This document shows positions 5,720 to 52,597 of a stretch of DNA of 64,000 nucleotides, one piece after another. Every line of letters begins with the position of its first letter. Position 1 is the first letter of the stretch. Both the position numbers and the translations under genes were made by a program. The stretch is from an uncultured Gemmatimonadales bacterium (GTDB taxonomy: Bacteria; Gemmatimonadota; Gemmatimonadetes; Gemmatimonadales; GWC2-71-9), in contig CAVUDL010000003.1 in assembly GCA_963740175.1 (NCBI GenBank), positions 7,413 to 71,412 of the forward strand. The letters are read 5' to 3'. Below the pieces are notes generated by a model. The model was not told the DNA's origin. It ran no database searches and saw only the letters and a list, made by a program, of their open reading frames with translations.

Positions 5720-6763
5720 TCAGGCTGCGGTGCGCAAGGCTAAACCGATCGGGAGCATCAGCAGGGGGGCGACTTCATCCACCTGCATCTCATCGAACAC
5801 TCCCTCGGCTACCTGCAGCTTCTCGATCGGATTGGCGAGCTGAACCGGGATCTGCAGCCGGTCTCCCAACGCACGGCTCAGCCGGGGAATACGCGCGCCG
5901 CCACCGGTCATGAAGATCCGGGAAATGCCACCCGCCGAGCGGCTGGCCGTCTGCAGGAATGCGCCGGCGCGCTCGATGCCCACCGCGAGCTCCTCGGTCC
6001 GCGTCTGCAGAAATGAATCGGGGATCTCACCGCCGCTCCCGCCCTGCAGCAGCCGCTCGGCTTCCTCGGCCGACTGCCCCCGCTCCCGCTGGAGGTCCTC
6101 GCGGAACCGCCGAGTGCCCACCGGGATGTCGCGGGTGAGGACCGGAACGCCGTCATCGAGTATGTAAATGTTGGTGACCTCGTGACCGACGTTCACCAGG
6201 CCGACCACACCGTTCATGGCTTCGGGGTAGTTGATCTCGAATGCGTTGTGAAGCGCGAAGGCGTCCACATCGATGATGCTGGACTGCAAACCGACATCGG
6301 CGAGCAGCGCCACTTTGTGGTCGACCAGCTCGCGCTTGGCAGCAACGAGCAGCACGGTCATCTGGAGCCCCTCGCCTTCAGGATCCAGGATCTGGAAATC
6401 GAGCTCGACGTTGTCCATGTCGAACGGCACGTGCTGCTCGGCTTCCCAGCGGATGACCTCGCGGGCCTCGTTCTCTCCCATGCGATCCATCGTGATCTTC
6501 TTCACGATGACATCTCGACCACCGACGGCGGTGACCACCGACTTCGCCTTGATGCCTGCGCTGGCGAGGAGACCCTTGATGGCCTCGGCGACAATGCCGG
6601 GGTCCATGATCTCACCCTCGACGATGGCATCATGGGCGATGGAGGTGAACGCCACCTTGGTCAGAACCGGACCACCGGCGGAGTGCGAGATGGCGACGAG
6701 CTTGATCAGGCCGCTTCCGATGTCCAGCCCGACCGTGGTCGCCTTGCGCCCGAAGAGTCCCAT
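5720..6763 (-). CDS. pilM: type IV pilus assembly ATPase-fold protein PilM
   Basis: Actin-like fold starting MGLFGRKATTVGLDIGSGLIKLV. I moved the start to the ATG at 6761-6763 because the ORF-track extension to 6886 would run through a sigma54-type promoter. Confidence 0.9.
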   Translation of the reverse strand: MGLFGRKATTVGLDIGSGLIKLVAISHSAGGPVLTKVAFTSIAHDAIVEGEIMDPGIVAEAIKGLLASAGIKAKSVVTAVGGRDVIVKKITMDRMGENEAREVIRWEAEQHVPFDMDNVELDFQILDPEGEGLQMTVLLVAAKRELVDHKVALLADVGLQSSIIDVDAFALHNAFEINYPEAMNGVVGLVNVGHEVTNIYILDDGVPVLTRDIPVGTRRFREDLQRERGQSAEEAERLLQGGSGGEIPDSFLQTRTEELAVGIERAGAFLQTASRSAGGISRIFMTGGGARIPRLSRALGDRLQIPVQLANPIEKLQVAEGVFDEMQVDEVAPLLMLPIGLALRTAA

Positions 6764-7453: not shown

Positions 7454-8295
7454 GAAGCCGGAGAGTTGCGGAGCGAAACTCGAGTGATGAGCTCCTCTCC
7501 AATGCCGGCAGAGTTCTCGGGTCCCTGGAGCAGGCCTCGCAGTGTGACCCGGATGGTGCTTATGCTGGTGCGGTCGAGTGTAGGTGCGCCGAACGCGTCC
7601 AGGTACTCCAGCGCAAACCCTTCGGCTCCGGCGAGGGGGCCGACCAGCGGCTGAATGGCTTCGCCGGTAGCAACGGAACGGACGCCAAGCCAGGAGTTAT
7701 CATCGGCACGGTAGAGCCGGAGCTCCATGAGCTCTCCGATACGGACTGGTGTGCCGGGGGCCAGAAGGTCGGCGCGTGGGTTGCCGGAGAGTGTCAGGGT
7801 GATGCCGGGACCTTGGCCGGGCGGACACGCCGATGTCGATGCCACATTCAGGATCCTGAAAGGCAACCAGGTGTCCTTCGTCTCCGTTGCGGGGTCCCCT
7901 GGCACGAAGACGTAGGCCTCGTCCCGGGCGGCCTGCGGGTCGCGATGCCCGGAGAAGGTGGCCTGCGCCAGCCGGATGACCGAGCCCCCCGGCGCCTGGC
8001 AGATAAAGCCCGTGCCCCGCATGGCGCGGTAGGTGACCGCCGCCGCCCCCATGGCCACGATGTCATTTTGTTCGGGAGTGCCCCCAGGTACGGTGCCGAG
8101 CTCGCCGAGCTCGTTCATGACGATGAGAGAGCCGGCGCGAACGCCGGATTGAAGCACCACCCGCTCCGCCTGTGCCCGGGCAGTTCGCTGAGTTGCCAGA
8201 AGCACATGGTAGATGGAGCCCATGACCATGAGCGTCACCACCAGGGAGAGCATGATTTCGGGCAGGGTGAACCCTCGGCGGGAGTGCCTCAGCAT
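7450..8295 (-). CDS. PilW-like minor pilin (prepilin-type N-terminal cleavage/methylation domain)
   Basis: The N-terminus RRGFTLPEIMLSLVVTLMVMG matches the G/FTLxE prepilin motif. Its 281-aa size fits PilW. Confidence 0.65.
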   Translation of the reverse strand: MLRHSRRGFTLPEIMLSLVVTLMVMGSIYHVLLATQRTARAQAERVVLQSGVRAGSLIVMNELGELGTVPGGTPEQNDIVAMGAAAVTYRAMRGTGFICQAPGGSVIRLAQATFSGHRDPQAARDEAYVFVPGDPATETKDTWLPFRILNVASTSACPPGQGPGITLTLSGNPRADLLAPGTPVRIGELMELRLYRADDNSWLGVRSVATGEAIQPLVGPLAGAEGFALEYLDAFGAPTLDRTSISTIRVTLRGLLQGPENSAGIGEELITRVSLRNSPAS

Positions 8296-8660
8296 GAAAT
8301 GCTGCTCTCCAGCTGGGCCGTGCGGATACCTCGCACCGTCAGGTAGGAGACGCTGACTCGTACCTGGCGCACCCTGCCGGCCGGAGCGACTTCCCAGCGC
8401 TCGGTAACGGCTCCCGAAATGATGGGGCCTCCGCTGGCCAGGTCAGCGCTTTGGCAGCGCGGCGTAGTGGACCCCGCGGCGGAGCGAAGCAGATCCATAC
8501 GCTGTGACGCCACCTGGGCGGCCCTCGTTTCCATCTTGCCGCGGCCGATCATACGGGTGATCGATGCGGAGGCGGATACCAGGGCGACGATGCCGACTCC
8601 AAGTACAACGATGGCCACCAGCGCCTCGACAAGTGTGAAGCCGGAGCTCATATGCTTCAT
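8289..8660 (-). CDS. PilV-like minor pilin (prepilin-type N-terminal cleavage/methylation domain)
   Basis: The N-terminus SSGFTLVEALVAIVVLGVGIVAL is a prepilin motif. The protein is 123 aa. Confidence 0.7.
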   Translation of the reverse strand: MKHMSSGFTLVEALVAIVVLGVGIVALVSASASITRMIGRGKMETRAAQVASQRMDLLRSAAGSTTPRCQSADLASGGPIISGAVTERWEVAPAGRVRQVRVSVSYLTVRGIRTAQLESSISC

Positions 8661-8749
8661 GGCTCATCCTCCATTTTCAGAAGGTGGCATCATCGCGGCG
8701 GAACGGGCGTACCCGATCCCCGCGATCTTGATCGAATGAGTGGTGGACA

Positions 8750-8827
8750 GGGTCTAGGGTCTAGGGTCTAGGGTCTAGAGTCTAGCATTGGGTGAGACCC
8801 CTAGACTCTTGACCCTTGACCCTTGAC
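8750..8827. repeat. heptamer tandem-repeat palindrome (repeat family, copy A)
   Basis: (GGGTCTA)x4 plus GAGTCTA faces CTAGACT plus (CTTGACC)x3. Hand folding gives about 24 pairs out of 27, with a T-T mismatch every 7 nt. It starts 3 nt after the stop of the activator gene. Confidence 0.85.
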
Positions 8828-8831
8828 GAGA

Positions 8832-10178
8832 CTAATGGGCCGGTAGCCGCCGAAGCTTGTAGAAGAGAGTGCGGAGGCTGATACCGAGGAGGTTGGCCGC
8901 TTGCCTGCGGTTGCCCTTGGCGGCATCGAGCGCACGCTGAATGGCCTCGCGCTCCACCGCTTCGACTTGAGAGCGCAGATCGAGGGGTCCGTTCGGCCCG
9001 CCGTTGTGGGATGCCGAGGCGCCGTTCGACAGGGCGAAGTCCTTGGAGTCCAGCGGGCTGCCTGCGCCCAGCACGGCAGCGCGCTCGAGAGTGTTACGCA
9101 GCTCGCGAACGTTGCCGGGCCAGCCATGGTGCGTAAGGGCCGCTAGCGCCGCCGGGGTAATGCTCACGGGATGGCCGAGGCGCTGGGCCATCTGGCGGGC
9201 AAAGTGGGTGAGCAGCTCGGGAATGTCTTCCGGCCGCTCGCGGAGCGGCGGGATGTGCAGCCGGACCACGTTGAGGCGGTAGTACAAGTCAGAGCGGAAC
9301 TCGCCGCGCTCGACCGCCTGCTCGACCGGACGGCCGGTGGCGGCGAGCACCCGCACATCGATCCTCCGCGCGTCGCGCCCGCCCAGCCGGCGGACCTGAC
9401 CCTCTTCCAGAACACGCAGGATCTTCGACTGCAGGCCGGGCGACACGTCAGCGATTTCGTCCAGAAGCAGGGTTCCGCCATCGGCCAGCTCGAAGAGGCC
9501 GGCGTGGTCGGTAGTGGCTCCCGGGAACGCGCCCTTGGTGTGGCCGAAGAGCTCTGATTCGAGCAGCTGCTCGGGTATGGCGGCACAGTTGACGGCGGTA
9601 AAACTCCGCTCGCTGCGGGTGCTCATCCGATGAATGGCGCGGGCCACCACTTCCTTGCCGGTACCGCTCTCCCCGGTGATCAACACGGGGGTCTGGTGCC
9701 GGGCGACCCGCGAGGCCAGCTCGAGCACGTCGCGCATGGCGGGACTCTGGGAAACGACCAGCTCCTTCACGGCGCCGATGCCCACATTCGACCGCAGGGC
9801 TTCGACCTCCCGGCGCAGCCGCTCCCGCTCCTCCGCCTTCCGCACAGCCATGGTGACTTCGTCGGGCTTGAAGGGCAGGTGTACGTAGTCGTAGGCGCCC
9901 TCGCGGAGGGCCGCCAGCGCGAGGTCTTCCATGCCCTGCGGGCTCAGCATGATCAGGAGGGCACTGCCGCCTTCGGCGCGCAGGCGGCGCAGAAAGCTGA
10001 GCCCGTCCATACCGGTCAGCTTGACGCCGCACAGGATGAGATCGAAGTCTTCGGCGGTGGCGCGGGCCAGCGCACGCGGAGGATCGCTCTCGGTCTCGAC
10101 CAGGTAGCCGGCCTCTCCGAGGAGCAGCGCGAGCGATTGCCTGATATCGCCATCATCCTCAACGATCAGCAGCCGCAT
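8832..10178 (-). CDS. sigma54-dependent response regulator (NtrC family; no adjacent kinase)
   Basis: REC domain (MRLLIVEDDGDIRQ), AAA+ domain (LITGESGTGKEVVARAIH, ESELFGH) and a C-terminal Fis-type HTH. The start was moved to the ATG at 10176-10178. The GAFTGA loop reads GAFPGA. Confidence 0.9.
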   Translation of the reverse strand: MRLLIVEDDGDIRQSLALLLGEAGYLVETESDPPRALARATAEDFDLILCGVKLTGMDGLSFLRRLRAEGGSALLIMLSPQGMEDLALAALREGAYDYVHLPFKPDEVTMAVRKAEERERLRREVEALRSNVGIGAVKELVVSQSPAMRDVLELASRVARHQTPVLITGESGTGKEVVARAIHRMSTRSERSFTAVNCAAIPEQLLESELFGHTKGAFPGATTDHAGLFELADGGTLLLDEIADVSPGLQSKILRVLEEGQVRRLGGRDARRIDVRVLAATGRPVEQAVERGEFRSDLYYRLNVVRLHIPPLRERPEDIPELLTHFARQMAQRLGHPVSITPAALAALTHHGWPGNVRELRNTLERAAVLGAGSPLDSKDFALSNGASASHNGGPNGPLDLRSQVEAVEREAIQRALDAAKGNRRQAANLLGISLRTLFYKLRRLPAH

Positions 10179-10303
10179 CGGTCTCACCTGCGATTGGAAG
10201 AAAGACCCGGGCATAATCCACGGGACCTTGCACGATCCGTAGCGAAAGCCGTTGCACCTCACCCGCTATTTCAGGGAGATCCGGCAGTGCAGAGCCATCT
10301 CTA

Positions 10304-21009: not shown

Positions 21010-21537
21010 ATGACCGGGTACGTGCTGGACAAGTGGCTCTGGGCGGCGCGCTTCTATAAAACCCGCTCCCTGGCGGCCGAGGCCATCGCGGGCGGCAAGG
21101 TCCAGGTCAACGGGGACCGGGTCAAGCGCGCGAGGCCGGTACAGGTCGGCGACGAGGTGCGAATCCGCCAGGGGCCCTACGAGCACCAGATCCTGGTGCG
21201 AGCGCTCTCCGGCCGGCGCGGGCCGGCCAGCGAGGCGGCTCAGCTGTATGAGGAGAAGCCGGAGAGTCGGGCGGCGCGTGAGGCGATGGCACTCCAGCTC
21301 AAGAGCCTGCACGCCGCCTTCGTTCCGGAGCGCGGGAGGCCGACGAAGAAGGACCGGCGGGAGATCAAGAGACTGAAAGGACGTGAGACGGTGAACGGTA
21401 AGGACAGTAAACCGGTGCGCAGCACCCGTTCACTGTTCACCGCTTCTCCGTTCACGCTCATATTTTCGACCATCGCCTTGGCGAACTCACTGGTCTTCAG
21501 CAGCGTGGCGCCGGTCATGAGCCGCTCGAAGTCGTAG
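21010..21537 (+). CDS. hslR: S4-domain heat shock protein 15 (HslR-like); the ORF overruns the expected end
   Basis: [39 protein letters not shown] and the [13 protein letters not shown]-type tail align with HslR up to about residue 128 (about 21393). The remainder reads through repeat copy C into the antisense strand of icd. Confidence 0.8.
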
Positions 21538-22709
21538 GTCACCCGCTTCTGCGCGATGGTCTTCTCGAGCGACGAGATGATCAGGTCCGCCGCCTCGTTC
21601 CAGCCGAGGTAGCGGAACATCATTTCACCGGAGAGAATGACCGAGCCCGGGTTGACCTTGTCCTGACCGGCATACTTGGGGGCGGTTCCGTGGGTGGCCT
21701 CGAAAATGGCGTGGCCGGTCAGATAGTTGATATTCGCCCCCGGTGCGATGCCGATGCCGCCGACCTGCGCTGCCAGGGCATCGGAGATATAGTCGCCATT
21801 GAGGTTCATGGTCGCGATCACGCCATAGTCGCGGGGCCGGGTAAGGATCTGCTGCAGAAACGCGTCGGCGATGACATCCTTGATGACCAGGCCACCGGGC
21901 AGGCGACACCAGGGGCCGCCATCGAGGTCAGTCGCCCCGTACTCCTCCCGGGCCAGGGCGTAGCCCCAATCGCGGAAGCCGCCTTCCGTGAACTTCATGA
22001 TGTTGCCTTTGTGCACCAGCGTGACGCTCTCGTACTTCTGGGCCAGGGCGTAGTCGATGGCGGAGCGGATCAGCCGTTTCGATCCCTCCTCTGAAATGGG
22101 CTTGATTCCGATGGCGCTGGTTTCCGGGAAGCGGATGGTCTGGACGCCCATGTCGCGCTGCAGGAAATCCACCATCCGCCGCGCGTCCTCGGTTCCGGCC
22201 TTGTACTCGATCCCGGCATAGATATCCTCCGTGTTCTCGCGGAAGATCACCATGTTGACCGCCTCGGGTGCCTTGACCGGGGAGGGTACCCCGGCGAAAT
22301 AGCGGACCGGTCGGACGCAGGCATAGAGATCCAGCTTCTGACGCAACGCCACATTCAGCGATCGGAACCCGCCGCCGACCGGCGTTGTGAGCGGCCCCTT
22401 GATTGCGACCAGAAAATGGTCGATCGTGGCCAGGGTTTCCTCGGGAAGCCAGCTGTTGAGCCGATCCTTCGCCTTCTCCCCGGCAAGCACTTCCAGCCAG
22501 GCGATCCGGCGACCGCGGCCGTATGCCCGCTCAACCGCCTGGTCGAAGACGTACTGGGATGCGCGCCAGATATCGGGCCCGGTGCCATCTCCCTCGATGA
22601 ACGGTATGATCGGGGTTGCCGGCACCTGAATGCGACCCTGGTGCATGGCAATGGCCTCGCCACCGGTGGGCGCCTTGAGTGGCTTATAGGCAGGGGCTGG
22701 CGCGGACAT
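21240..22709 (-). CDS. icd: NADP-dependent isocitrate dehydrogenase (homodimeric Icd type) with a 72-codon read-through tail
   Basis: [17 protein letters not shown]...[14 protein letters not shown]...[25 protein letters not shown]...[11 protein letters not shown] is collinear with E. coli-type Icd, which ends at ENM (here 21459). The start was moved to the ATG at 22707-22709. Confidence 0.9.
21383..21456. repeat. octamer-unit imperfect palindrome (repeat family, copy C) between convergent genes
   Basis: GTGAACGG-TAAGGACA-GTAAACCG-GTGC faces GCACCCGTTCAC-TGTTCAC-CGCTTCT-CCGTTCAC. It sits exactly where both hslR and icd would be expected to stop. Confidence 0.7.
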
Positions 22710-22772
22710 GGATACCTCGGGCAACGGGCTATGGGTCACGGGGAAGTGCCGCTCAATCTGATCGGGTGACGG

Positions 22773-24527
22773 ATGAACAGCAATACAACTCTCCGGCCTG
22801 TCGCGGCCGCGGTGGCATCCATTCGATCGGCCTACGAGAGGTACGAACGGGGCTTCGAGGAGATCACGGGGAGGGCCCAGAGCCGCTTCGAGCGGCGCGA
22901 TTGGTCCGGCGCACAGGCGGACGCCACCGAGCGACTGGCGCTCTATAAGACGCACGTGGATGCGGCGGTTTCCGACGTTCGCGACATCCTGGACGACGGG
23001 GTCATGGAACGCACTGTCTGGGCCGCCATGAAGTCTCAGCATGCGCGCGAGATAGCCGGGCGCGCCGATCGCGAGCTGGCGGAAACATTCTTCAACTCGG
23101 TCACCCGGCGGGTGTTCAGCACCGTCGGCGTCGATCCGTCAATCGAATACCTGGACTGCTCCCCTTCGTCGTCGACGGATGATCCGGCTATCTGTCACAC
23201 CTACCGGGCCTCGAAGGTCGATGCCGCTCTCGTGCGCCGGATGCTCCAGGCCGTCCCTTGGTCCGTAGGGTACGCCCAACTGGAGCGCGATGCCGCGCTC
23301 GTGGCCCAGCTGATCGACGCACGGATCCGGCAAGAGACGGAGTCAGCTGGTACGGTAGAGATCGACGTGGTGCGGTCCGTGTTCTATCGCAACAAGGGAG
23401 CCTACCTGGTTGGACGCATCCGTGCCGGTACTGCCGTCATACCATTGGTGATCCCGCTGCTGCATGCCGAGCGCGGCATCGTGGTCGACGCGGTGCTCAT
23501 GACGACCGACGCGGCGAGTGTGGTGTTCGGATTCAGCTGGACCTACTTCCGGGTGGAGGCACCCAGCCCCAGGGCCCTGGTGAGCTTCCTCGGCTCAATC
23601 ATGCCGTTGAAGCTGGTTCACGAGCTCTACACGGCAATCGGCTACAACAAGCACGGGAAGACGGAGCTCTACCGGAACCTCATGCGGCACCTGCAGGAGC
23701 CCAACGCGCGCTTTGCTTTCGCGGAGGGAGACGAGGGAATGGTGATGGCGGTGTTTACGCTGCCGTCCATCAATGTCGTGTTCAAAGTCATCAAGGACAG
23801 CTTTGGGGCTCCGAAGAACACCACCCGTCGCGCCGTGATGGAGAAATACCATTTCGTGTTTGTCCGGGACCGGGTGGGCCGGCTGGCCGATGCGCAGGAG
23901 TTCGAGCATCTGGAGTTCCCCCGGCACTGCTTTCCGGATGATCTGCTCGCGTATCTCGTGCGGGAGGCCGCGGCAACCATCCGGGTTGAGGGCGAGCGGG
24001 TGGTGGTGCGGCAACTGTACACCGAGCGCCGGGTGGTGCCGCTCAACCTGTTCCTTCGAGATGCCGACGAAAGTGCGGCGCGGGAGGCAGTGATCGACTA
24101 CGGCACGGCCATCAAGGATCTGGCCGCAGCAGATATTTTCACGGGCGACATGCTGCTGAAGAACTTCGGGGTGACCCGGCACGGCCGGGTCATCTGCTAT
24201 GACTATGACGAGCTCTGCCTGCTGTCCGAGTGCCGTTTCCGCCGGATTCCCGAGCCGACATCGCTGGAGGACGAGCTCTCGGCCGAGCCCTGGTTCTACG
24301 TCGCCGAGCAGGACGTGTTCCCCGAGGAGTTTCGAGCGTTCCTCGTTCCACCCGGCCCGCTGCGCGAGGACTTCCTCCAGGCTCACGCAGATCTGCTGGA
24401 CGTCCGGTTCTGGCAAGGCGTGCAAACGAGGCTGGCGGCCGGTGAAGTGGTGGACGTCTTTCCCTACCGGCGCGACGCCCGATTGCAGCGGAACGAGGAG
24501 ACCCTCCTCAGCGCTCGAATTCGGTAA
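22773..24527 (+). CDS. aceK: isocitrate dehydrogenase kinase/phosphatase
   Basis: 584 aa, collinear with AceK: ESFFNSV-type segment ([12 protein letters not shown]), [74 protein letters not shown] and DVFPEEF. Confidence 0.9.
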
Positions 24528-28647: not shown

Positions 28648-29054
28648 AAAAAGAAGAGGAGAGGGGGGAGAGGGGCAAGAAGAGAAGAAGAAGGGAGAAG
28701 AGGAGAGGAGGGAGGAGGGAGAGAGAGGAGGGAGAGGGAGGAGAGGGAAGGAGGGGAAAGGGGGATGAGAGGTGGGAGGAGAGAGGGGGAGAAAGAAGAG
28801 GAGGGAAAGAAAAGAAGAGAGAGAGAGAGAGGAGAGAAGGGAGAGAAAGAGAAGAGAAGAAGGTGAAAGGAGAGAAAGAGAAGAGAAGGAGAGAGAGAAA
28901 AGAAGAGAGAAAAGAGAGGAGAGAAGAGAAAGAGAAAGGGAGAAAAGGGAGAGAAGAAGAGAGAGGAGAGAGAGGGGGGGAGGAAGAAGAAAGAAAGGAG
29001 AAGGGAGAGAAGGGAGAGGAGGAGGGAGGGGAGAGAGAGAGAGGAAGGGGAGGA
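28648..29054. other. 407-nt purine-only (A/G) low-complexity tract
   Basis: Direct reading finds only four pyrimidines (C at 28676; T at 28766, 28773 and 28864). There is no exact repeat unit. It begins where the N-terminus of the oxidase subunit I gene should lie. Confidence 0.9.
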
Positions 29055-38833: not shown

Positions 38834-39745
38834 TTACTCCCTCCGCACTAACGCCAGCGCCACATCGCCGACGATCTGTAAACTCCCGGGGCTCACCTTG
38901 TCCATGGTGTCCTCCGTGGTGTGCCAGGCGGGGTAATCGAAGTCTACGACGTCGATCGCGCGAATTCCGGCCTTCTGGAGCTCCAGGTGGTCATCGATCA
39001 GCGTATGACGTGGTGACGAGATGAAGTAGCCACCGTAGCCGAGATCCTTCGCCGTCCCCCACACCAGCTCGACCACCTCCGGCGCACCGACCAGCGAGTT
39101 GCCCTCCTGATACAGCTGAAGATCCTTGTCGGCCACCAAATCGAAGAGAACCGCATACAGCGGCTTGGGGCCGGGAAGCTGATGGGCCCCGTAGTAGCGA
39201 GAGCCGATCAGCACGTCGGCCGGAGCCTCGGTGAAATGACCGTAGTCCTCGCCGTCGACGAACAGGAGATCGACTCCGGCGGAGGGTGGGGTCCGCTTCA
39301 GAACATCTGCAACGCCCAGCAGCAAGGCAACGCCGGAGCCGCCATCGTTCGCTCCCAGCACGGCCTTGGTCGAGTCGCGGGAGCGAGGGCTGTCGGACAT
39401 CGGCCGACTGTCCCAGTGCGCCAGCAACAACAGGCGCTTTTCTGCCGTGGGGTTGAATCGCGCGATGAAGTTGCGAAGCGGCAGCGTGGTCTTGTCGGCG
39501 GTGACGTGGTTCCAGCTCTGTACGATGACGGTGTCGGCCCGTTGCCGCAGCAGGCTGTCCAGCCAGTCGCCCATGCGGCGGTGCGCCTCGGTCCCGGGAA
39601 CCCGGGGGCCGAAGCCCACCTGGGTCTGGATGTAGCCGAACGCCGAGGCGCCGTCGAATTCGCGCGGCGGCTTGGCCTTCTCCCTGCAGGAGACGGAGAG
39701 GACGGAGAGGATGGAGACGGCGGAGAGGTATTTGAGTCTATGCAT
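38834..39745 (-). CDS. M28-family protein resembling bacterial glutaminyl-peptide cyclotransferase
   Basis: LLLLAHWDSRP...VLGANDGGSGVALLLGVADVL...GVDLLFVDGEDYG matches the type II glutaminyl cyclase / M28 pattern. The signal peptide is encoded by repeat copy D. Confidence 0.8.
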   Translation of the reverse strand: MHRLKYLSAVSILSVLSVSCREKAKPPREFDGASAFGYIQTQVGFGPRVPGTEAHRRMGDWLDSLLRQRADTVIVQSWNHVTADKTTLPLRNFIARFNPTAEKRLLLLAHWDSRPMSDSPRSRDSTKAVLGANDGGSGVALLLGVADVLKRTPPSAGVDLLFVDGEDYGHFTEAPADVLIGSRYYGAHQLPGPKPLYAVLFDLVADKDLQLYQEGNSLVGAPEVVELVWGTAKDLGYGGYFISSPRHTLIDDHLELQKAGIRAIDVVDFDYPAWHTTEDTMDKVSPGSLQIVGDVALALVRRE

Positions 39746-39804
39746 GCCGAAACCTAATGGGGTCCCTTCTCAATCCTCTCCGTCCTGCTCCGTCCTCTCC
39801 GTCC
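39689..39804. repeat. 9-nt tandem-repeat palindrome (repeat family, copy D) spanning a start codon
   Basis: Left arm GGAGACGGAGAGGACGGAGAGGATGGAGACGGCGGAGAGG (39689-39728). Right arm CCTCTCCGTCCTGCTCCGTCCTCTCCGTCC (39775-39804). The inner 8-bp stem is 39721-39728 with 39775-39782. Confidence 0.85.
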
Positions 39805-42800
39805 TACTGATAGTCCCCCGCATAGAGCGACAACTGGAAGGTGACCATCAGAAAGATCTGCGATGTCCTGCGGCTCACGTGGCGAGCGTCGCTGATCGAG
39901 TAGCCAAACTGAAGGCCCCCGCTCAAGGTCTTGAGCAGGTCGGTGTCGAGGCCGCCGCGTAGCTCCTGGCGCCGCACATCGGACACGACGATGCACGCCG
40001 GATCCCCACCCTGCTCCAGGCACGTGAGCGTCTTGGAGGAGAGTGCCGTCAGTGTGGAGCGAACCTGTTTCCTGGTCCGGCTGATGGAAGCCGGCAATGC
40101 GAAGGAATAGTTGGCCGACCCGGTGAGATCGTCCTGATCCAGTTCGGTTGCATTGCCGTTGTTCTCGGTACGCTGGGATCGGGTGGAAAGCCCGAAGGTC
40201 AGCGCCAGACCGTTCCGGAAGGAAAGCTGCAAGTCCGGCGTCAGCGCGTAGGACGAGATGGCGCTGGTGGCCACCGTCCCGCCCCCGCTCGGCTGGGTCG
40301 AGGTGCCGTTGCGCTGCCGCAAGCCGGCTCCCGCGGCCACCAGCGTCAGAGGTCCGCCGGCAAAGGCTCGGGTCCATCGGACATTGCCCACCGGCCACTC
40401 AATTTGCCGGGTGATGATTTCAGCGAACTCGCCTCCGAGAAGCTGGAAGCGGTCCGTCCGGGTCAGCGAGTAGGACAGCGTGGCGCTGAACCCGAGCGGC
40501 AGGTCGGCCCCCGACGTCACTGTCGTGCTCCGAACCTCGGTGACGCCCCGGGCATCCTCGCCCTCGTGGGTGAGGAACTGGTCGCGTCCGCCGAGCCCCA
40601 GCATGAAGCCAAGGTCCGGGTTGAATGCCATCAAGTCGTAGGTCGAGGTGCGGCCCAGGCGGGTGGCGAAGTCCACCGGGCGCACCCGCGCGAATGCCTT
40701 CCCGATGCCGCTGCTGTCGGACCAGACCTGGCGCAGCGCCCGCCCCAGGTCGAGGGAGACTCCGATCTCCCGGTTCCGACCGTTGTTGAGGGTCTGAGGA
40801 AGGATGAAAGCGCCGCTGTCGCCCAATTCGCGGACCGGATCCCGGCTGGTCAGGGTACGGGACAACACAAAGTTGCTGGTAGTGGTGTATCGCGGGCGCA
40901 GCCATGAGTTCAAGCGTGGGGTAATCGACAGGGCAGTGCTGAACACACGGTCGCGCTCTACGCCTACCGGTATACCAAGGAAAAAGCGGCGCTCCTCATA
41001 GGCCAGCCGGCCCAGGGATGTCGAGTCAGGATAGACTCTGAGATCCCGGGTGCTGGAGAGATCGCCCGTCAACCCGATCATGCCCAGGGGCTGCCAGGTG
41101 AGACCAGCAGAATTCCGCCACAGGTGGGTGAGGGATAGCGTGGGCGTGATCAGGAAATCGTCGGGCCGGGAGACCGGCACTGCGAAGAGCGAGTAGTCGG
41201 ACTGGTTCCTGGACAGGCCGCTGCTCAGCCGCACATTTGACGGCACCAGGCTGAACGTAGCGTCCCCCAGCGCCTTGCCGCCTTCGCTCCGGCGAATCCA
41301 GTCGGGCAGCCCCTTGATGATTCCGCCGAACGGCAGCCGCGGGCCCCGGCGCTCCATCCGAAGATTGTAGCCCAGCGTGAGCGAGTATGCGTCGTTGTTC
41401 GCGTCCGAGAGCTCGGTGCGCGCGCGTCCCTGGTTCAGGATCCCCGCCAGCGAGAGTGGATCCACCACCCCTCGGACCAGCCAGCCCTTGCCCCGCTGAT
41501 TGCGCCGGATCGCGAGCGTATAGTTGCTGTTCCACGCGAGCGGCTTTCGCAGCCCCTCGAGCGCGTCACCGCGCAGGTCACTGCCGGTGAGGAGCTCGGG
41601 CGTCACGTCGCTCCGCGCATAAGCCACGGTGAGCGGAATCGACAGACCAAGACTGGTGGGCAAAAACCGGTCGAGCCGCCAGTTGGTGTTGACCTGAAAT
41701 GCGCCGGTGGTGCGATAGGTGGGGTCGCGGTTGATCTGGTGGAACTGCCCGTCCTGCTTCACGAAGGAAAAGTTCACATTCCCCACATCGGAGGCCAGCA
41801 GCCGGGCGTCCACCGCCATGGCGGCCCCCAACTCGGCGAGGGGACTGCTGAGCCGGATATCATCCACCCAGAGCTCCGCCTCGGGCACTGCCTAGGCTGC
41901 CGGCACTCCGGTAGATGCCTGCGGAGATCTCCTGGACGGCGGCAAGGTTGGGTGGATTGATTCCGGGGTCCGCGAGGTGGACCAGGTAGGGCCCATCGCA
42001 CGCCACGTAGGCATCCACGTCCAGGCTGCCGCACTCGGTTGCGCCGGAAGCGGGTGCGCCGCTCAACCAGCGATCCTCGATGTCGGCCCTGAGACTGCGC
42101 CAGACCTCGAGATCAATGGTGAACTCCGGCTCCCACGTGGTGCTACGCGCGGGTGCGCGATACATGTAGAAGTTGCTGCCATCGCTGCCCAGCTTGATGA
42201 ACGCCTGGAAGTCCCCCTGCTCCCAGCCCTCTCCCCGGCCGCGCATCCAGACCCGTAGCTGCTCGTAGCTCAGAACGTTCTGAGGACCGGTAGGGAGGCG
42301 GAGGTACGCCTCGGCACGCTCGCCCACCTCGATTCCCCGGGCAATCAGCCGCAGGGACTTCTCGTTGACCTCGGTGCCCAGCACCCGCTGGTCTCCGTCT
42401 TTCACGGAGAGTCCCTCAAACACCCCGGGCGGCGGGATGTAGCCCAGGTCCGTGGTATTCTCGGTCGAGATGACCGAGGCGATAACCTCACCACTGGGCT
42501 CCGCCGCAGTACCCGAGATACCCGCGATCGGCGCCTCGGCACGTCGAACCCAGGGCGAACCCACCAGCCGCATGCGCGCAAGCGCGAAGCGCGCGATCAC
42601 GTCCGGACCGCCCACGTCGGCCGTCCCCGCCACGGTGACTCTGAGGTGCTGGATCAGGCGCAGGCTGGGAGTGCCGATCGTCACATCGGGCGTGCGGATG
42701 GGAACCCGGTAGAGCTCCCAGACGCCAGTCGTAGCTTGGGTGATCGAGTCCTTCTGCTGCACGCCGTTCCGCACGAAGTACTTGTCTCCCGGCAGCAGCG

Positions 42801-45800
42801 TGACAACGTAGCGGAACATGCTCTCGTTGGCCCCGGTGGCGTTCAGCACGTTGTCGCCGTTCAGGTCCTCGGTGTCGAGGCTTCCGTTCCCCCGGGTGCA
42901 GCGGCCGCTCAGGTCGCCCCAGGGGAAGACCGGAACGGCGGCGCTGAGAAACCGCTCGCAGAGTGCCCCGGGCTCCGGGATCTCTTCACCCGTGACGGCG
43001 TCCACCAGCACATCCGGCCGATCTCCCAGGATCCCGATATCGTCCACCTGAGCGTCAAAGATGTCAAAGCTGCTGCGCTCGCTGTCGAGGCGTCCGGGGC
43101 CGACATACTGGCGCCCGGTGAAGACGGTATCACCGCCGGCCGTCGCAATCGTCAGCGGGGCTATCCCCAGGGCATCTTCATTGACGGTGCCGAGGTCGAA
43201 CACCAGCCGCACGCCGGCAGAGTCCGTGGTTCTGCTCTCCGGCGGACCGGGCTGAAAGACCCAGAACTCCAGGTACTCGTCCTGGGTAATGTCCACCCCG
43301 GTGGGGCTGAGCGTCGTCACCATGGAGCGCCAGCGCGGCTTCCCGGGCCGGACTGGTAAGGACCAGCGGGAGGCGTTGTTCCGCTGAACCAGGCCGCCCG
43401 CGGTGTCGGCATGGAGAGTGAGATACATCGCAGTCTCCTGCTGCTGACTGCGACCCGCAACACGTATCAGGGAATCGATGTCCTGCGCAAAGAGTTCGAC
43501 CGGCTGAGCCGACCCGCTCGAGATGGGAACCAGGTTCTGCCAGGTGAGCGCTACCGCGTCCTCCTCGTCGAACGTCCCTCCCACCACGTCAGCCACGCCA
43601 TCCGCCTGCTGAGGGCGGCTCCCAAACTCCCACGCGGTCTCACTCAGCGAGATGGGGATTCCAGCCTCGGCCTCGAACTCTTCCAGGTAGGCCTGGCCGG
43701 ACCGATTGGCGTCGGGCTTGGTGAAGGCGTACTCGGCGTTCACATCCAGACGGGACGGGGCCACGGCGGGTGAGGAGGTCAACCGGTTAAAGAACCGGGT
43801 GATCGCCATGGGCTTGAAGCTGAGCTCGGTGTTAACGCCACCGACGAGGTTCGCCGATGCCTCGAATCCGAGCGGTGGGCGATTGAAGGCGCTCTGCTCC
43901 CGCTGATACATTCCGATGAGGTTGATCGCTCCCACGTCTCCCAGGCGGTAGCGGGTGGAGAGGCCCAGGATGGTAGTGGGAGCCACGGCAAAAAGCCCTT
44001 GCTCCTCGAAGCGGGCGGTAATCTGGGCGGCTCTGGTGCCGAAAAGCGCATCGGGGTTCAGGAAGGTGACCTGGCCGAGATCGTACGAGATCGTGTAATC
44101 CACTCCCCGCTCCAGCCGCCGGCCATCGAGTAGCAGCTGTTCGCTCTTGTCCCGGATCTGCAGGGCCCCGAGACTCAGCGTAGACCGGTCACCCGCCCCG
44201 GTGGAGTTGTATTGCAGCCGGGCCTGAAACTTGGCGGGCGGACCCTGCGACAGAATCAGGTGCAGCGGCGTTCGGTACAGAGAGTCGGAACGTTCTTCGA
44301 CGGTCAACCTGGGATCGGAGAACGGTGTGAGCGTCGGAAACACGATGTAGGATTCGCGCAGAACCTGAGCGGCGTCTGGATCGCGGCTCCGGGGGAAGAG
44401 GCGGTTCTCGCGGTCGAACACATTCTGGTCGGTGGCCACGGCCAGGCCGAGGAGCGCCAGGTAGGTGGTTCCGCCGCCCAGGGGCCGTTCCGACCGGTTG
44501 ACCGAAAGGCTGAGCTGCAGCGACGCCGGATCGAGATCGGATCCGCCCGCGCGGTAGATGTGGCGCATCTCATGGCGGAAGGTGACCCACTCGGGGCCGC
44601 GTTGCGGCTGGAACACCAGCCGAAGGCTATCGCTTGAACCTTGACCGCGATCTTCCGACGGAAAGGTGCCGACCGTGGTGCCTGCCGCGGTGGTATAGCT
44701 GACCGCCAGGTGGTCGCTCGCGTCGAGCTTCGTGGCCAGCGCGAGCCAGAGACCGGACGGATCCAGGTAATAGTCCGTCCCCTGAACCAGGAGTTGCCAC
44801 CGAACCGGTCCAAACTTCTGGTTTGGGTCAATGGTCGCTGCCAGCGCGGTGATTCCGCCGAGGTTAGGGTCGGTGCCCCCCTGGCTCTGGGGCGGCCGGT
44901 ACCGGTAGACCCGGACCTGGACCGGCCGGTCATTCGGGGCCAGCGTGGCCGCCGAGAGGTCAAGGATATCGATGCCGGGGTAGCCAGGTAGGGCCGCGGT
45001 CGGGTCGATTACCCAGAAAAAGCGGCCGGTCTCGAAGTCGAGATCGCGCACTTGGCGGTCCTGCGGCTGGCTCGTCGTCTGCCCGATCGTGTAGGTGCGC
45101 TCGGCGACCTGGCTGCCCTTCTGGGTTGCGGCCAGGGTCTGGAATTCAAACGCCCCGACCTCGAACTGGGCATTCACGCCGAAATTGTTGGCGGGAATCG
45201 CAGCGGTGATGAAGCGCGACTGGGGTGGCTGGAAGCTGACGGTGCCGACTTCGATCCGACGGATAATCTCGTCTTCCAGTCCCTGGTAGTAGACTTGAAT
45301 GTTGTTGTTGGCGGTAAAGTCCCGCTCGGTGTCGTAGTCCAGGTTGACATGCACCCGACGTCCAATGGTGCCGCTCGATCGGAGGTTCACCTGATTATCG
45401 AGTCGCGGTGGTTTGAATCCGCCGCTGCAGCCGGAGTTCGGGTCAAGCAGCAGGGCCGGACTACAGCGCTCGTTGCGCAGGCGGTCGGTCCGGAGCTCGA
45501 GCCTTACTTGGCCGTCGAGTGTCAGGTCGGCATACTTCGGAGATAGTCCCAGGACGCCGCCACGTTGCTCCCGCGGCTGGGTGCTGTCAGTCGCCTGAGG
45601 CTTGGCGGCGAGGCCATATAGTAGGAGAGCGCGCTGGGCAGCGGCATGCTCGGTCCGGGCCGAATCGAGCGCGACGCTCAAGGTGCTATCCCAGACCTGG
45701 CCGCGCTGGCCGGGAGAGAGCTTGGAGGCGCCTAGCCACGGCGCCCGCAGCACTGCCGGTTGGCGCAGACTGAGCGGCGGGGCCGAAATCCGAAGGCGGA

Positions 45801-45915
45801 GTGCCGGAAGGGTGGTATCGGCCCGAGCCGAATCGGCCTGCCCAGCCAGAAGCCGCGGGAGCGTAGCAAGGCAGATCAGGGCGACGACTGAGCGCGCCAG
45901 GCTAGCGCAGGGCAA
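39804..45915 (-). pseudogene. sprA: T9SS translocon SprA-like protein (about 2035 aa), one frameshift as sequenced
   Basis: ORFs 41860-45915 and 39804-41888 are collinear with SprA (YYQGLEDEIIRRIEVGTVSF...; ELWVDDIRLS followed by a C-terminal beta-barrel). Removing one base near 41893 fuses them. Confidence 0.8.
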
Positions 45916-45996: not shown

Positions 45997-47499
45997 GTGA
46001 GACTCCTGAACCGCTACGTCCTGCGGCAGCTGGTCGCCCCGTTCTGCTTTGCGCTGGCGGCGCTGACCGGCTTCATGTTGATCAGTCAGGTGGCGAAGAA
46101 GTTCGGAGCCCTGGTCGGCAAGGGACTGCCCTGGTCGGTGATTACGGAGGTGTTCGTGCTGAGCCTCCCCTTCATCGTGGCTATGACGTTGCCGATGGCC
46201 GTCCTGTTGGCGGTGCTGTACACCTTCAGCCACCTGGCGGCCGACAACGAGATCACCGCCATGCGGGCCAACGGCATCAGCGTCTACCAGATTCTTGCCC
46301 CGGTTCTGGTCTGGGGTGTCTTCATGGCCACATTCAACCTCGCATTCGTGGACCAGGTCCTCCCCCGAAGCAACGCCCGGCTTCGCTCTCTCCTCATCGA
46401 TATTGGCCGTAAGAAGGCGGCGTTCGGCCTGCGCGAGCAGGTCATCAACGAGGTCCCCCCCTCGAAGTACTTCATCCGGGCCAGCCGGATCGACGCCGCT
46501 ACCGGCCGCCTGAGAGGGGTCACGATCTACGATGTAGGGGGCGAGGCCAGCCGCCGGATCATTTATGCGGACAGCGGTTCCATGGCGTATGCCGAAGGAC
46601 AAACCGACCTGAGCTTGCGCCTTTTCAATGGCTCCATCCACCAGTACCGGCCCGCGGAGCCCACGCGGTTCCAGCTGACGTATTTCACGGTCAACGACAT
46701 CCGGGTGAAAAACGTTTACGACGAGCTGCAACGAAGCACCAGCGAATCGATCCGGGGCGACCGCGAGATGAGCACATGTGAGATGCTGAATGTGGTCCGA
46801 GAAGCCCGGCACGAGCAGGTCGAGGCGCGGCAAGACCGGCGCGAGCTGGTCTTCCGGGACCTACGGCTACTTCTGGCGCTGCCCGCCTTACCTCCAGTGC
46901 CGCCATCCGCCCCCGACACTACCGGCCACGGCTACTGCGACTGGCTCAAATCGGTACAGACACTGGTCCTTCCGGGGACGGCCGAAGCCCAAGCTCCAGC
47001 ACAGGTTCAGACCCCCAAGCTGCCCGGTCCTCCCCGGGGGAAACTGAGGCTGTCCAACTGGTCCGAGGTGGCCACCGCGGCTGACCGGGTACGCGAGGCG
47101 GACCGGAGGGCGGACCGCTATGCGGTGGAAGTCCATAAGAAGTGGGCCATCAGCATGGCCTGCATCACCTTCGTCATCATTGGCATCGTGATGGCCCTGC
47201 GGTTCCCCCGGGGAGGAATCGGGCTGGTCATCGGCGGGGGGCTTCTGGTCTTCTCCATCCACTATGTGGGCCTGACCGCAGGCGAGAGCCTGGCCGACCG
47301 GGGGCACGTGGCGCCCTGGGCCGCCATGTGGGCGCCCAACATAGCATTGACCATCCTGGGAGTGCTGGGGCTGCTCTGGGTGAGCCGCGAGTCCGGGTCG
47401 ACTCGGGGCGGAGACTTCCGCGAGATGATCGAGGGCCTAGCGCACCTGGGCCGCCGACTCCAGGCGGCGACGCTCCGGCGCCTGGGGAGGGTGGAGTGA
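45997..47499 (+). CDS. lptF: LptF/LptG-family LPS export permease (with a long periplasmic insert)
   Basis: MRLLNRYVLRQLVAPFCFALAALTGFMLI is the YjgP/YjgQ N-terminal signature. Six TM helices are predicted. Confidence 0.8.
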   Translation: MRLLNRYVLRQLVAPFCFALAALTGFMLISQVAKKFGALVGKGLPWSVITEVFVLSLPFIVAMTLPMAVLLAVLYTFSHLAADNEITAMRANGISVYQILAPVLVWGVFMATFNLAFVDQVLPRSNARLRSLLIDIGRKKAAFGLREQVINEVPPSKYFIRASRIDAATGRLRGVTIYDVGGEASRRIIYADSGSMAYAEGQTDLSLRLFNGSIHQYRPAEPTRFQLTYFTVNDIRVKNVYDELQRSTSESIRGDREMSTCEMLNVVREARHEQVEARQDRRELVFRDLRLLLALPALPPVPPSAPDTTGHGYCDWLKSVQTLVLPGTAEAQAPAQVQTPKLPGPPRGKLRLSNWSEVATAADRVREADRRADRYAVEVHKKWAISMACITFVIIGIVMALRFPRGGIGLVIGGGLLVFSIHYVGLTAGESLADRGHVAPWAAMWAPNIALTILGVLGLLWVSRESGSTRGGDFREMIEGLAHLGRRLQAATLRRLGRVE

Positions 47500-48620
47500 T
47501 CAAGATCCGGCAGGCCCTGAGGCACTTGCTCCCTACCCGCCGGCTCCGACAGCTGGATCGCTACGTGCTCAGCAGCTGGATTCGCCTGTTCGTGCTGGCC
47601 GCTTTGGGGCTGCCGCTGGTGGCGATCTTCTTCAACCTCACCGACATGCTGAGCAAGCTGTTGGACCGGGGTCTGACCATGAAGGAGATCACCATCAGCT
47701 ACGTGTACGCCCTCCCGGAGTACGCGTTTCTGGTTATGCCTGCCGCGGTGCTCTTTGCCACGGTGTTCACGGTGGTCAGCATGAGCCGCCACTCGGAGCT
47801 CACCGCGGCCAAGGCCGGGGGCCAAAGCTTTCACCGGATCATGCAGCCGTTGTTCATCGCAGCGGGCCTGGCCGTGGTCCTGACATTCGGCGTAGGCGAA
47901 CTGGCACCGTGGGCGACGGCTCGGCAGCTCGAGATCCAGAAGGCCAAACAGGCACGTCCCACCCGGTCGCGCTTCAACTTCGTGTACAGCGGTGACGCGG
48001 GCTGGGTGTACACCGTCCGCTCGCTGGATGTGGCCAACCGCCAGCTGAAGCAGGTGATGTTCGAGCGGCAGGGCACCGGGCTCGACTACCCAGGACTGGT
48101 TCTCACGGCGGACAGCGCGACCTATGACGACTCGCTCAAGAGCTGGCGGCTGCGCACCGGTGCCAGCCGCGTGATTGCCGGGCCCGGCAGACAGGCGACG
48201 TTCAGCTTCCGCACGATGCGCCTCCGAGCACTTCGTCAGTCACCGGGAGACCTGCTGGCGGAGTCGAAGGGTCCCGACGAGATGCGGTATGCGGAGCTGG
48301 GTCGGTATATCGAGGCCCTGCAGCGCTCCGGCAACGATGCCAATAAGCTGATCGTCGAACAGGCGCTCAAGCTGGCCCTCCCGGCGACGTGTCTCATCAT
48401 CGCCTTGTTCGGCGCACCGCTTGCGATCAGTGCACCACGGGCGGGCCCCGCTGTCGGAGTGGCCATCAGCCTGGGCACGGCGCTGATCTTTCTGCTGCTC
48501 ACCCAACTCACCAAGGCAATCGGGTCGGGCGGTGTCATCAACCCACTGGTGGCCGCCTGGTTCCCCAACGTGATCTTTCTGTTCGCGGGACTGGTGCTTC
48601 TGGCGAGGGTGAGGACGTAG
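47496..48620 (+). CDS. lptG: LptF/LptG-family LPS export permease
   Basis: LDRYVLSSWIRLFVLAALGLPLVAIFFNLTD is a YjgP/YjgQ signature. I place the GTG start at 47496, overlapping the lptF stop (GTGA). The ORF-track extension upstream is rejected. Confidence 0.8.
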   Translation: MIKIRQALRHLLPTRRLRQLDRYVLSSWIRLFVLAALGLPLVAIFFNLTDMLSKLLDRGLTMKEITISYVYALPEYAFLVMPAAVLFATVFTVVSMSRHSELTAAKAGGQSFHRIMQPLFIAAGLAVVLTFGVGELAPWATARQLEIQKAKQARPTRSRFNFVYSGDAGWVYTVRSLDVANRQLKQVMFERQGTGLDYPGLVLTADSATYDDSLKSWRLRTGASRVIAGPGRQATFSFRTMRLRALRQSPGDLLAESKGPDEMRYAELGRYIEALQRSGNDANKLIVEQALKLALPATCLIIALFGAPLAISAPRAGPAVGVAISLGTALIFLLLTQLTKAIGSGGVINPLVAAWFPNVIFLFAGLVLLARVRT

Positions 48621-48699
48621 CGGGGCAGCGGGTAGCGGGTAGCGGGTAGCGGGTAAGCGGGGCAGCGGGGCAGCGGGGCAGCGGGGCAGCGGGGCAGCG
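48621..48699. repeat. tandem G-rich repeats, left arm of copy E
   Basis: (GCGGGTA)x3-4 followed by (GCGGGGCA)x5. The array starts directly after the lptG stop. Twenty-seven nt are the exact reverse complement of 49189-49216. Confidence 0.9.
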
Positions 48700-52588: not shown

Positions 52589-52597
52589 AAAGCCTTT

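Follow-up and report, generated by a model that had tools for sequence, protein, structure and literature searches.

What could keep a hairpin built of short tandem repeats in place at the end of a bacterial gene? The question is raised by a 64,000-nt stretch of DNA from an uncultured Gemmatimonadales bacterium (GenBank assembly GCA_963740175.1, contig CAVUDL010000003.1, positions 7,413 to 71,412; hereafter the window, 65% G+C), in which positions 8749–8827 hold two complementary arrays of heptamers next to the stop codon of a sigma-54 activator gene. We find that this element belongs, as a solo without cargo, to a tandem-repeat hairpin family that is abundant in Gemmatimonadales. Longer members of the family carry the same arms around the gene for a toroidal four-helix-bundle protein, the one that intervening sequences (IVSs) of rRNA also carry. 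The explanation that we favor, and to which we would give an even chance, is that these hairpins are maintained by base pairing, most likely as RNA, and are built like rRNA IVSs although they lie outside rRNA.

The hairpin at 8749–8827

The 5' arm (8749–8785) is G-rich and consists of (GGGTCTA)x4 plus GAGTCTA and one further G; Tandem Repeats Finder (TRF) reports it as a period-7 array of 5.3 copies with 96% matches to the consensus AGGGTCT. The C-rich 3' arm (8801–8827) consists of CTAGACT plus (CTTGACC)x2.9 and falls within a second TRF array of period 7 and 4.1 copies (8799–8827). Between them lies a 15-nt loop (8786–8800) that holds a small inner GGGT/ACCC stem. An inverted-repeat finder aligns 8759–8785 with 8801–8827, that is, 27 nt at 89% complementarity and 15 nt apart. 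Read base by base, 8777–8785 pairs perfectly with 8801–8809, and further out a T stands opposite a T at 8776/8810, 8769/8817 and 8762/8824, giving one mismatch in each heptamer of the right arm. Folded as single-stranded RNA, the 88-nt segment has a minimum free energy of -47.3 kcal/mol on the plus strand (z = -4.4) and -48.1 kcal/mol on the minus strand (z = -6.2), and none of 200 shuffles (0/200) matched this stability. The mismatch, T-T on one strand and A-A on the other, favors neither strand in folding.

An earlier note on this DNA, made from the letters alone, had described a 78-base hairpin with a T-T mismatch every 7 nt, and repeat detection, inverted-repeat detection, base reading and fold z-scores all bear it out. 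One small point differs: the right arm begins at 8801 rather than 8798, and the last CTTGAC unit is incomplete. The mismatch in every repeat unit, which the note had singled out in this copy, is real but ordinary for the family: of the 26 solos of period 7 found in the survey that follows, 17 have a one-position difference between the consensus units of their arms.

One architecture, many repeat units

We surveyed 1.19 Mb with TRF, comprising the window and 80 loci that an alignment scan for the four-helix-bundle/23S rRNA-IVS protein (IVP) retrieved from species-representative genomes, all of them Gemmatimonadales or Gemmatimonadota. About 25 of the 80 are syntenic with the window at 38.8–59 kb, the closest being L023 at ~90% DNA identity. 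Two arrays with reverse-complementary units within 1.5 kb were counted as a pair, and a short-spaced pair without cargo as a solo. On this definition there are 128 inverted tandem-array pairs, the periods of the tandem arrays peak at 7–10 nt, and the spacing between arms is bimodal, either below 100 nt or 400–600 nt.

The anatomy is constant: a G-rich array of about four units of 7–10 nt, a complementary C-rich array, and between them a spacer of 0–100 nt or a cargo. The G-rich arm lies 5' in 44/47 solos (p = 2.5e-10), most of the exceptions being mispaired neighbors, and in 57/57 pairs that bracket an IVP gene. In solos the median arm holds 4.1 units (interquartile range 3.6–4.4), or ~31 nt, and the mode exceeds the detection floor. 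Twenty-six of the 47 solos are built of 7-mers; arms that bracket an IVP gene are built of 8-, 9- or 10-mers, with one 7-mer case. Solo midpoints fall within a predicted coding sequence in 14/47 cases, as against 76% of random positions (p = 3e-11), and several of these 14 lie in open reading frames (ORFs) that were over-extended by choosing the longest start. Where a solo adjoins the 3' end of a gene, the median gap between its edge and the stop codon is 3 nt, with 18/21 between -19 and +17 nt, and distances to start codons are greater. The flanking genes are arranged in tandem at 19 solos, convergently at 5 and divergently at 5.

Within this architecture the units themselves fall into 26 clusters in the 1.19 Mb, and neither unit clustering nor an inverted-repeat scan revealed any further sequence common to the loci. 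The window alone has six or seven units over seven loci: GGGTCTA, AGCTGGG (twice), GACGGAGAG, AGCGGGGC/GTAGCGG, GTGAACGG and an ACGGATGAAC-like unit. The six additional loci to which the earlier note had ascribed a common architecture are real and come out as the top inverted repeats (at least 85% complementarity) in a scan of the whole window. Measured distances to stops and starts place all seven at gene boundaries, as claimed, and two of them (21383–21456 and 52588–52825) are only weakly tandem. The larger proposal of a multi-copy family with one architecture, locus-specific units and a gene-boundary position gained support from the scan of related genomes, with its 128 pairs.

For comparison, 528 kb around metagenome relatives of the sigma-54 activator, mostly of 37–59% identity and on contigs not assigned to taxa, contained only 4 pairs, which speaks for an enrichment by taxon. 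These lie at L100, L130, L148 and L151, where the activator relatives have 39–41% identity; one example has ACAGGATTA x4 and AAATCCTGT x4 with 15 nt between. The architecture may extend beyond the groups studied.

A protein gene between the arms

The long form is represented in the window by a cassette between lptG and nadB. Its 5' arm (48617–48699), (GTAGCGG)x~5 followed by (AGCGGGGC)x5.5, starts on the lptG stop codon, and its 3' arm (49190–49216), (CTGCCCCG)x3.4, ends 11 nt before the nadB ATG (49228). Over 48663–48689 and 49190–49216 the arms are complementary at 27/27 positions, 490–500 nt apart. The gene that they enclose (48704–49113, minus strand) encodes an IVP (PF05635, TIGR02436; Pfam E = 1.9e-20 over 48725–49051) and not a transposase. 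It is a pseudogene in the window: frames, nucleotide alignment and tblastn agree on indels of +2, +3 and +1 nt relative to the intact orthologues in L023 and L005. Although the gene is broken, the arms remain complementary at all 27 positions. The closest IVP proteins (70–80% identity) come from metagenome-assembled genomes (MAGs) of Gemmatimonadales.

Across the survey, a called inverted pair brackets the IVP gene at 55 of the 80 loci, and at another 11 an array flanks the gene on a single side, some of these being at contig ends. Conversely, every well-matched array pair spaced 410–530 nt apart surrounds an IVP gene. Pairing between the arms of gene-carrying pairs is ~89% Watson-Crick over 2059 columns. 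Many of the IVP contigs recovered have a very short length, and contig ends hold several of the IVP matches, as would be consistent with assemblies breaking at the arrays. The arrays also extend or overlap ORFs and can mislead gene callers.

This anatomy recalls the IVSs in the 23S rRNA of Coxiella, Leptospira and Salmonella, which have a long terminal inverted-repeat stem of ~28 bp, enclose one PF05635 gene in ~0.4–0.7 kb in their long versions, carry no gene in their short ones and often have a decaying cargo gene. The Coxiella IVS, for instance, is cut by RNase III; its 428–444 nt include a terminal stem of 28 bp and an S23p ORF in decay (PMC4990558). Likewise, the long form described here has a stem of ~25–60 bp around a small PF05635 gene in ~0.5 kb, and the gene is sometimes decaying; the 8750 hairpin, with no ORF between its arms, resembles the short IVSs of Salmonella. 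Two differences stand out. The elements described here lie outside rRNA, between protein genes (lptG/nadB, accB/accC, ABC permease pairs), and tandem repeats are not a reported feature of IVS stems in PMC4990558.

Arms that change together

The same sites can be followed through genomes in which the units have been replaced. The lptG-IVP-nadB cassette, compared across 19 genomes (18 loci and the window), has the units AGCGGGGC, AGCGGGTA, AGCGGGGA, GGCGGGAC and other variants; most of the 19 have the same variant on both arms, and in a few the arms differ by one base. Arm copy numbers can be unequal, as in one case of 10.5 vs 3.4. At the 54.2-kb site the unit is GCTGGGA in the window, GGCTATT in L023, and GGCTATG, GGCTTTG or AGCTAGG elsewhere; the other arm matches in each case, and the site is without a hairpin in three relatives. 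Elements are kept at the same sites across genomes of only 70–80% DNA identity. We take these comparisons to indicate that what is conserved is base pairing between the arms and not their sequence.

A parallel case comes from Xanthomonadales. Xanthomonas, Stenotrophomonas, Pseudoxanthomonas and Dyella have an IVP gene between accB and accC, with some four GGGAATC units immediately past the accB stop and a complementary array immediately ahead of the accC ATG; here the mismatch pattern is six paired bases and one mismatch. In Xanthomonas itself, the IVP gene XCC0516 and its orthologues lie between two GGGAATC-type arrays. In unit 2, both arms have GGGAGT in Xanthomonas and both have GGGAAT in Stenotrophomonas and Dyella, a compensatory change across ~400 nt. 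XCC0516 of Xanthomonas campestris is also the protein of 2GSC, the sole solved structure in the IVP family, and forms a homopentameric toroid (PMC4990558). Gemmatimonadales and Xanthomonadales, from two unrelated phyla, thus both have IVP genes in the loop of hairpins with tandem-repeat arms and both have solos of like architecture. The Gemmatimonadales amount to a natural experiment in which units differ from locus to locus while the arms match, which argues for pairing over motif, and because Xanthomonas can be cultured, its accB-IVP-accC cassette is open to direct testing.

The earlier note had also suggested footprints of a mobile hairpin. A copy-and-paste origin of this kind finds no support here, since the hairpins stay at orthologous sites while their units turn over, both arms together. 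At the 52.7-kb element, the closest relative (L023) retains the right arm but neither the left arm nor the bulk of the cargo. This single comparison of an occupied with a shorter site showed neither a target-site duplication nor a clean insertion boundary, and the shorter site looks like a partial deletion.

Comparison with described repeats

The earlier note had not recognized a described family here. The architecture has in fact been catalogued, in Xanthomonas (PMC4692102) and in Geobacter metallireducens (PMC2700814), and in neither case was a function established. The GGGAATC repeats of Xanthomonas (Rehm et al. 2015; PMC4692102) prefer four units (28 nt), are ~90% intergenic, lie near or overlap the upstream stop, vary in length and sequence between close species and form 70–75 convergent inverted pairs 21–67 nt apart; their function was left unexplained. 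The repeat adjoining XCC0516 (#15) is listed there as unpaired, and the IVP gene family is unmentioned. The elements described here are alike in their tandem G-rich 7-mers (GGGTCTA x5.3 at 8750; solo median 4.1 copies), in their convergent G-first pairs tens of nucleotides apart (a 15-nt spacer at 8750; 44/47 solos) and in their intergenic position beside a stop codon (4 nt at 8750; solo median 3 nt). They differ in that Xanthomonas has one genome-wide consensus unit, whereas Gemmatimonadales units are locus-specific and include 8-, 9- and 10-mers.

In G. metallireducens (Aklujkar et al. 2009; PMC2700814), there are 49 copies of four tandem GGGACCG, 24 pairs of 4 x GTTGCTYN that often have IS110/IS481 elements between them, 21 pairs of 3 x TCTCCGTS[Y] (class 2) and 8 pairs of 5 x MTYCTGA. 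The insertion sequences ISGme8 (IS110 family) and ISGme9 (IS481 family) recur between the paired arrays (PMC2700814, Table S4), which were proposed as sites for unknown global regulators of the IHF/HU type. The likeness lies in arrays of 3–5 tandem 7–9-mers that form intergenic pairs (proB/proA is one case), with the partners on opposite strands and their spacing variable, and the class 2 unit is essentially that of the 39.7-kb hairpin in the window (CTCTCCGTC). Geobacter differs in having few fixed unit classes per genome and IS110/IS481 elements, not IVP genes, between pairs; hairpins of this paired-array kind may be insertion targets.

The short tandemly repeated repetitive (STRR) sequences of cyanobacteria are likewise intergenic tandem heptamers, but they are described as direct arrays, and in Nostoc only a few inverted pairs were found (PMC4692102). 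A Chamaesiphon IVP gene is itself flanked by AGCTNNN arrays: IVP genes from a MAG of Chamaesiphon, like those from uncultured contigs of two groups, have period-7 arrays on their flanks (AGCTTTC/GAAAGCT, AGCTGAT). At L167–L175, heptamer arrays (AAAGCTG, GCTGACC and similar) enter the 3' end of the IVP frame and encode its C-terminal residues (...KAES, ...ADR). A palindromic AGCT core is common to many 7-mer units of unrelated lineages (AGCTGGG, AGCTAGG, AGCTGAT, AGCTTTC); units with this core were seen at 14807 and 54170 in the window, at L009, L034, L040, L057 and L065, and at L167–L175.

The earlier note had set the elements apart from repetitive extragenic palindromic sequences (REPs) and their bacterial interspersed mosaic elements (BIMEs), from ERIC sequences and from MITEs, the miniature transposable elements with inverted repeats. 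That distinction is sound, for the copies share no sequence and match nothing in Rfam, and the single site comparison at 52.7 kb shows no clean insertion boundary. REP/BIME elements (REPINs) are intergenic hairpins near gene 3' ends and within operons, occur both as solo copies and as inverted copies flanking a gene, and persist vertically for long periods. They differ in that each genome has a conserved, non-tandem sequence family; the hairpins described here have no sequence common to their copies. The associated protein differs too, since the REP-associated tyrosine transposase (RAYT) is a Y1 transposase and the IVP has no known catalytic activity. MITEs are set apart by the lack of a target-site duplication in the 52.7-kb site comparison and by the unlikeness of the copies to each other.

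We found no literature linking IVP genes to tandem repeats, although the literature that could be searched is incomplete, and this is no proof of novelty. What appears new is the co-variation of locus-specific units, the strict polarity and stop adjacency in Gemmatimonadales, and the recurrence of an IVP gene in the hairpin loop across phyla.

What maintains the hairpins

If the hairpins are maintained by pairing, each arm would evolve by slippage and homogenization, so that a mismatch, once present, would recur once per unit. The product would most likely be an RNA stem-loop in a 3' untranslated region or between cistrons; the tight link to stop codons leads us to weight RNA above a DNA structure such as a cruciform. 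The stem could serve as an RNase III processing site or as an exonuclease barrier that punctuates transcripts. Among the roles that the earlier note had listed, RNase III substrate appears the best fit to the anatomy, the long form being built like a 23S rRNA IVS. The G-first polarity, we infer, would keep the C-rich, Rho-accessible segment from becoming single-stranded in transcripts from either side.

Several observations weigh against this explanation. The 8750 site is not conserved: at L081 and L082, metagenome contigs on which the activators have 86% and 88% protein identity, the corresponding spacers hold ordinary imperfect hairpins, so that any function of the element there would be dispensable or replaceable. 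No sigma-70-type promoter was found between the G-rich arm and the IVP start (0/53). Mismatches on the IVP sense strand are G-U rather than A-C in 79 vs 52 cases; counted by locus, the excess is 34 vs 23 and not significant, and the units are not independent. Transcription-associated C-to-T change (deamination) on the non-template strand could give a like bias. At 14807, the strand that gains G-U pairs is antisense to the adjoining gene. AT-richer lineages have the purine-rich arm 3' of the IVP gene, which makes the G-first polarity less than universal, and one of these groups has direct, not inverted, arrays beside it. Finally, template switching within a quasi-palindrome, from one arm to the other, could make the arms co-vary with no selection involved.

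That last mechanism is central to the rival explanation that comes closest, in which the elements are functionless, neutral or selfish 'palindromic microsatellites', produced by slippage and template switching (quasi-palindrome correction) and accumulating in the unconstrained spacer on the stop side of genes. We judge it unlikely, though much in the data suits it: gain and loss among close relatives (the 8750 hairpin is absent in the 86–88% orthologues, and half of the 52.7-kb element is deleted in L023), unequal arm copy numbers (10.5 vs 3.4), a periodic mismatch that is typical of the family and shows independent homogenization of each arm, and a habit of abutting stops while keeping farther from starts. 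Arrays also enter coding sequence, in the signal peptide at 39.7 kb, at the lost isocitrate dehydrogenase stop at 21.4 kb and at the IVP C-terminus elsewhere. Harder to square with it are an arm length centered on ~4 units or ~31 nt with no decay from the detection floor, a near-invariant polarity, and persistence at the same sites at 70–80% DNA identity, with complementarity kept through complete unit turnover. The architecture also recurs in unrelated phyla (see also PMC4692102 and PMC2700814). A different possibility is that the arrays are double-stranded binding sites for an oligomeric protein, be it a regulator of the IHF/HU type or the IVP itself, with inversion allowing symmetric binding or looping. 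The paired arrays of Geobacter were so interpreted (PMC2700814), Xanthomonas uses the single unit GGGAATC genome-wide and also beside its IVP gene, and ~4–5 units per array would suit the pentameric ring of XCC0516 (2GSC). Yet one protein cannot read 26 unit clusters, or the six or seven units of a 64-kb window, and still the arms match. Dozens of units, each tied to its locus, have nothing in common but that the arms match; for this reason above all we prefer a nucleic-acid hairpin and give the protein-site model a slim chance. The window IVP is moreover a pseudogene with its arms intact, and a scan of the PADLOC defense-protein library left the IVP unmatched.

Bidirectional transcription terminators, which the earlier note had also proposed, would sit immediately after stop codons and have very stable stems, as these elements do, and the 52.7-kb element lies between convergent genes with T-runs on both sides. 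High-GC bacteria are known to have terminators that consist of the hairpin alone ('I-shaped'). Against the canonical kind, a scan of 8500–9000 returned 0 terminator-like sites, and a T-rich tail (5 or more T within the following 12 nt) adjoins 2/47 solos, no different from the background of 4%. The hairpins occur alike in tandem, divergent and convergent contexts, inside operons (pilR-pilin here; accB-accC, atp and groESL in Xanthomonas) and in the 96-nt divergent spacer at 54.2 kb, so that we regard termination as quite improbable. The repeats of Xanthomonas have been treated as G-quadruplex-forming simple sequence repeats, and GGGAATC oligonucleotides form quadruplexes in vitro (PMC4692102); a reading as G-quadruplex or i-motif switches was proposed for them. 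The left arm at 8750, (GGGTCTA)x4, does fit the G3-N4 motif with its four tracts of at least three G, and the preference for four units matches the four G-tracts needed. This reading is highly improbable for the family: only 16/47 solos have units with GGG; GACGGAGAG, GGCTATT and AATGCGG are unable to form three tetrads; the full 8750 element folds as a hairpin even with quadruplex energies enabled; and the retention of a complementary arm is left unexplained. MITE- or REP-like mobile hairpins, or their excision footprints, seem barely plausible. Presence and absence do vary among relatives, the unit AGCTGGG occurs at two window loci, IS110 and IS481 insert between the paired arrays of Geobacter, and RAYT genes flanked by REPs offer a formal parallel to array-flanked IVP genes. 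But no sequence family is common to the copies, no transposase was noticed, though no systematic search was made for one, the comparison of occupied and shorter sites showed no clean insertion boundary or target duplication, and the cassette site has been passed on vertically in at least 19 of the genomes compared and in four Xanthomonadales genera. Telomerase-like addition of repeats at a healed break was considered as a source of the G-first polarity and dropped, given that units are specific to their locus and shift gradually between orthologous sites.

Maintenance by pairing leaves room for a wider idea, namely that the IVP and tandem arrays of 7–10-mers form one functional system across bacterial phyla. 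We hold this to be decidedly unlikely, though its consequences would be large. Like TRAP, the pentameric ring would bind single-stranded RNA or DNA with one subunit to each tandem unit, ~4–5 units in all, in competition with the hairpin. The cassette would be a self-flanked master copy, and the solos would be its targets or a maintained population, as REPINs are for RAYT. If true, this would give PF05635 proteins a function and explain the origin of rRNA IVSs as well as the heptamer repeats of Xanthomonas, Geobacter and cyanobacteria. It would bring together three old puzzles that have been treated apart: the role of G-rich heptamers, the role of PF05635 proteins and the origin of rRNA IVSs.

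Surroundings of the 8749–8827 hairpin

The hairpin stands 4 nt from the stop of a gene for an NtrC/PilR-type sigma-54 activator (8832–10262, minus strand), with Pfam matches to Response_reg, Sigma54_activat (E = 2.9e-68) and HTH_8. On its other side, 88 nt away, is the ATG of a prepilin-type gene (8289–8660, minus strand; Pfam N_methyl, E = 5.8e-07). A PilS-like kinase gene lies further upstream of the activator in the same minus-strand line of genes.

No promoter was detected around 8750, and a search of the window for sigma-54 promoter patterns gave a single match, elsewhere. In L084, L085 and L091, the spacers 3' of the activator gene have a clear sigma-54-type motif, TGGTAC-N5-CTGCT/CTGCA, before a pilin-like gene, a placement that would fit a pilin controlled by PilS/PilR; window positions 8660–8750 have at best a degenerate version of it. 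The 80% orthologue L083 has GGAACGTG-type arms ~210 nt apart that cover its entire spacer.

Other hairpins and features of the window

Two of the remaining hairpins are solos with AGCT-containing units in divergent spacers. The first, with AGCTGGG and AGCTCCT arms (14807–14833/14861–14888), has a spacer of 27–29 nt and a z score of -5.7 on the plus strand, and it begins 11 nt upstream of the ATG of the PilS-like histidine kinase (14795, minus strand). The second, with GCTGGGA and AGCTCCT arms (54170–54235), has almost no spacer (z = -8.2) and fills its 96-nt divergent spacer. Folding at this 54.2-kb site much favors the plus strand, at -62.5 vs -48.9 kcal/mol, and its mismatches turn into G-U pairs on that strand.

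The hairpin at 21383–21456, with GTGAACGG-type units, is weaker and the least tandem (z = -5.8 and -6.4). It begins 3 nt past the natural C-terminus (...VENM) of isocitrate dehydrogenase. The ORF for this enzyme (21240–23042, minus strand) has no stop at its natural end and runs on for 77 extra codons through the hairpin; the stop seems to have been overwritten by the repeat, or the assembly to be in error.

At 39.7 kb, between genes in tandem as is the cassette at 48.6–49.2 kb, a hairpin with 9-mer arms GACGGAGAG and TCCTCTCCG (39692–39728/39765–39805; z = -6.4) overlaps the stop of a SprA-like ORF with its right arm. Its left arm encodes, at 39692–39745 on the minus strand, the hydrophobic core of the signal peptide of an M28 peptidase lipoprotein (MHRLKYLSAVSILSVLSVSC), so that the tandem repeat in the DNA doubles as an LSV-LSV peptide repeat. 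A frameshift seems to have divided a single SprA-type (type IX secretion) gene into two overlapping minus-strand ORFs (39804–41888, 694 aa, and 41860–45915, 1351 aa), the former matching just the central part of the SprA_N profile.

Convergent genes flank the 52.7-kb element, which consists of arms of 36 nt, 92% complementary (52588–52623/52790–52825), around 166 nt of non-coding cargo. At 52588 it overlaps a stop codon, and its orthologues have (GCAGATGAAC)n arms. The cargo was considered as a small-RNA gene; the idea was dropped, the cargo being only partly conserved, and a permissive Rfam scan of it gave only a chance snoRNA match. The orthologous site in L010 (~6108–6495) has a different array, with tandem units of roughly 30 nt that contain 'ggttccaaaccatt'.

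Rfam and tRNA scans of the whole window found no RNA family, rRNA or tRNA. In the lptF/lptG region there is an inverted repeat that is not of the tandem type, with 22-nt arms (TCCTCCCCGGGGGAAACTGAGG at 47028–47049 and CCTGCGGTTCCCCCGGGGAGGA at 47196–47217) that are 86% complementary and 146 nt apart. Positions 28650–29050, ~400 nt, are nearly pure purine (G/A) on the plus strand and yield many overlapping GA-rich TRF periods. Such a polypurine/polypyrimidine tract is of the kind able to form H-DNA, and the region is unaligned with the syntenic locus L021.

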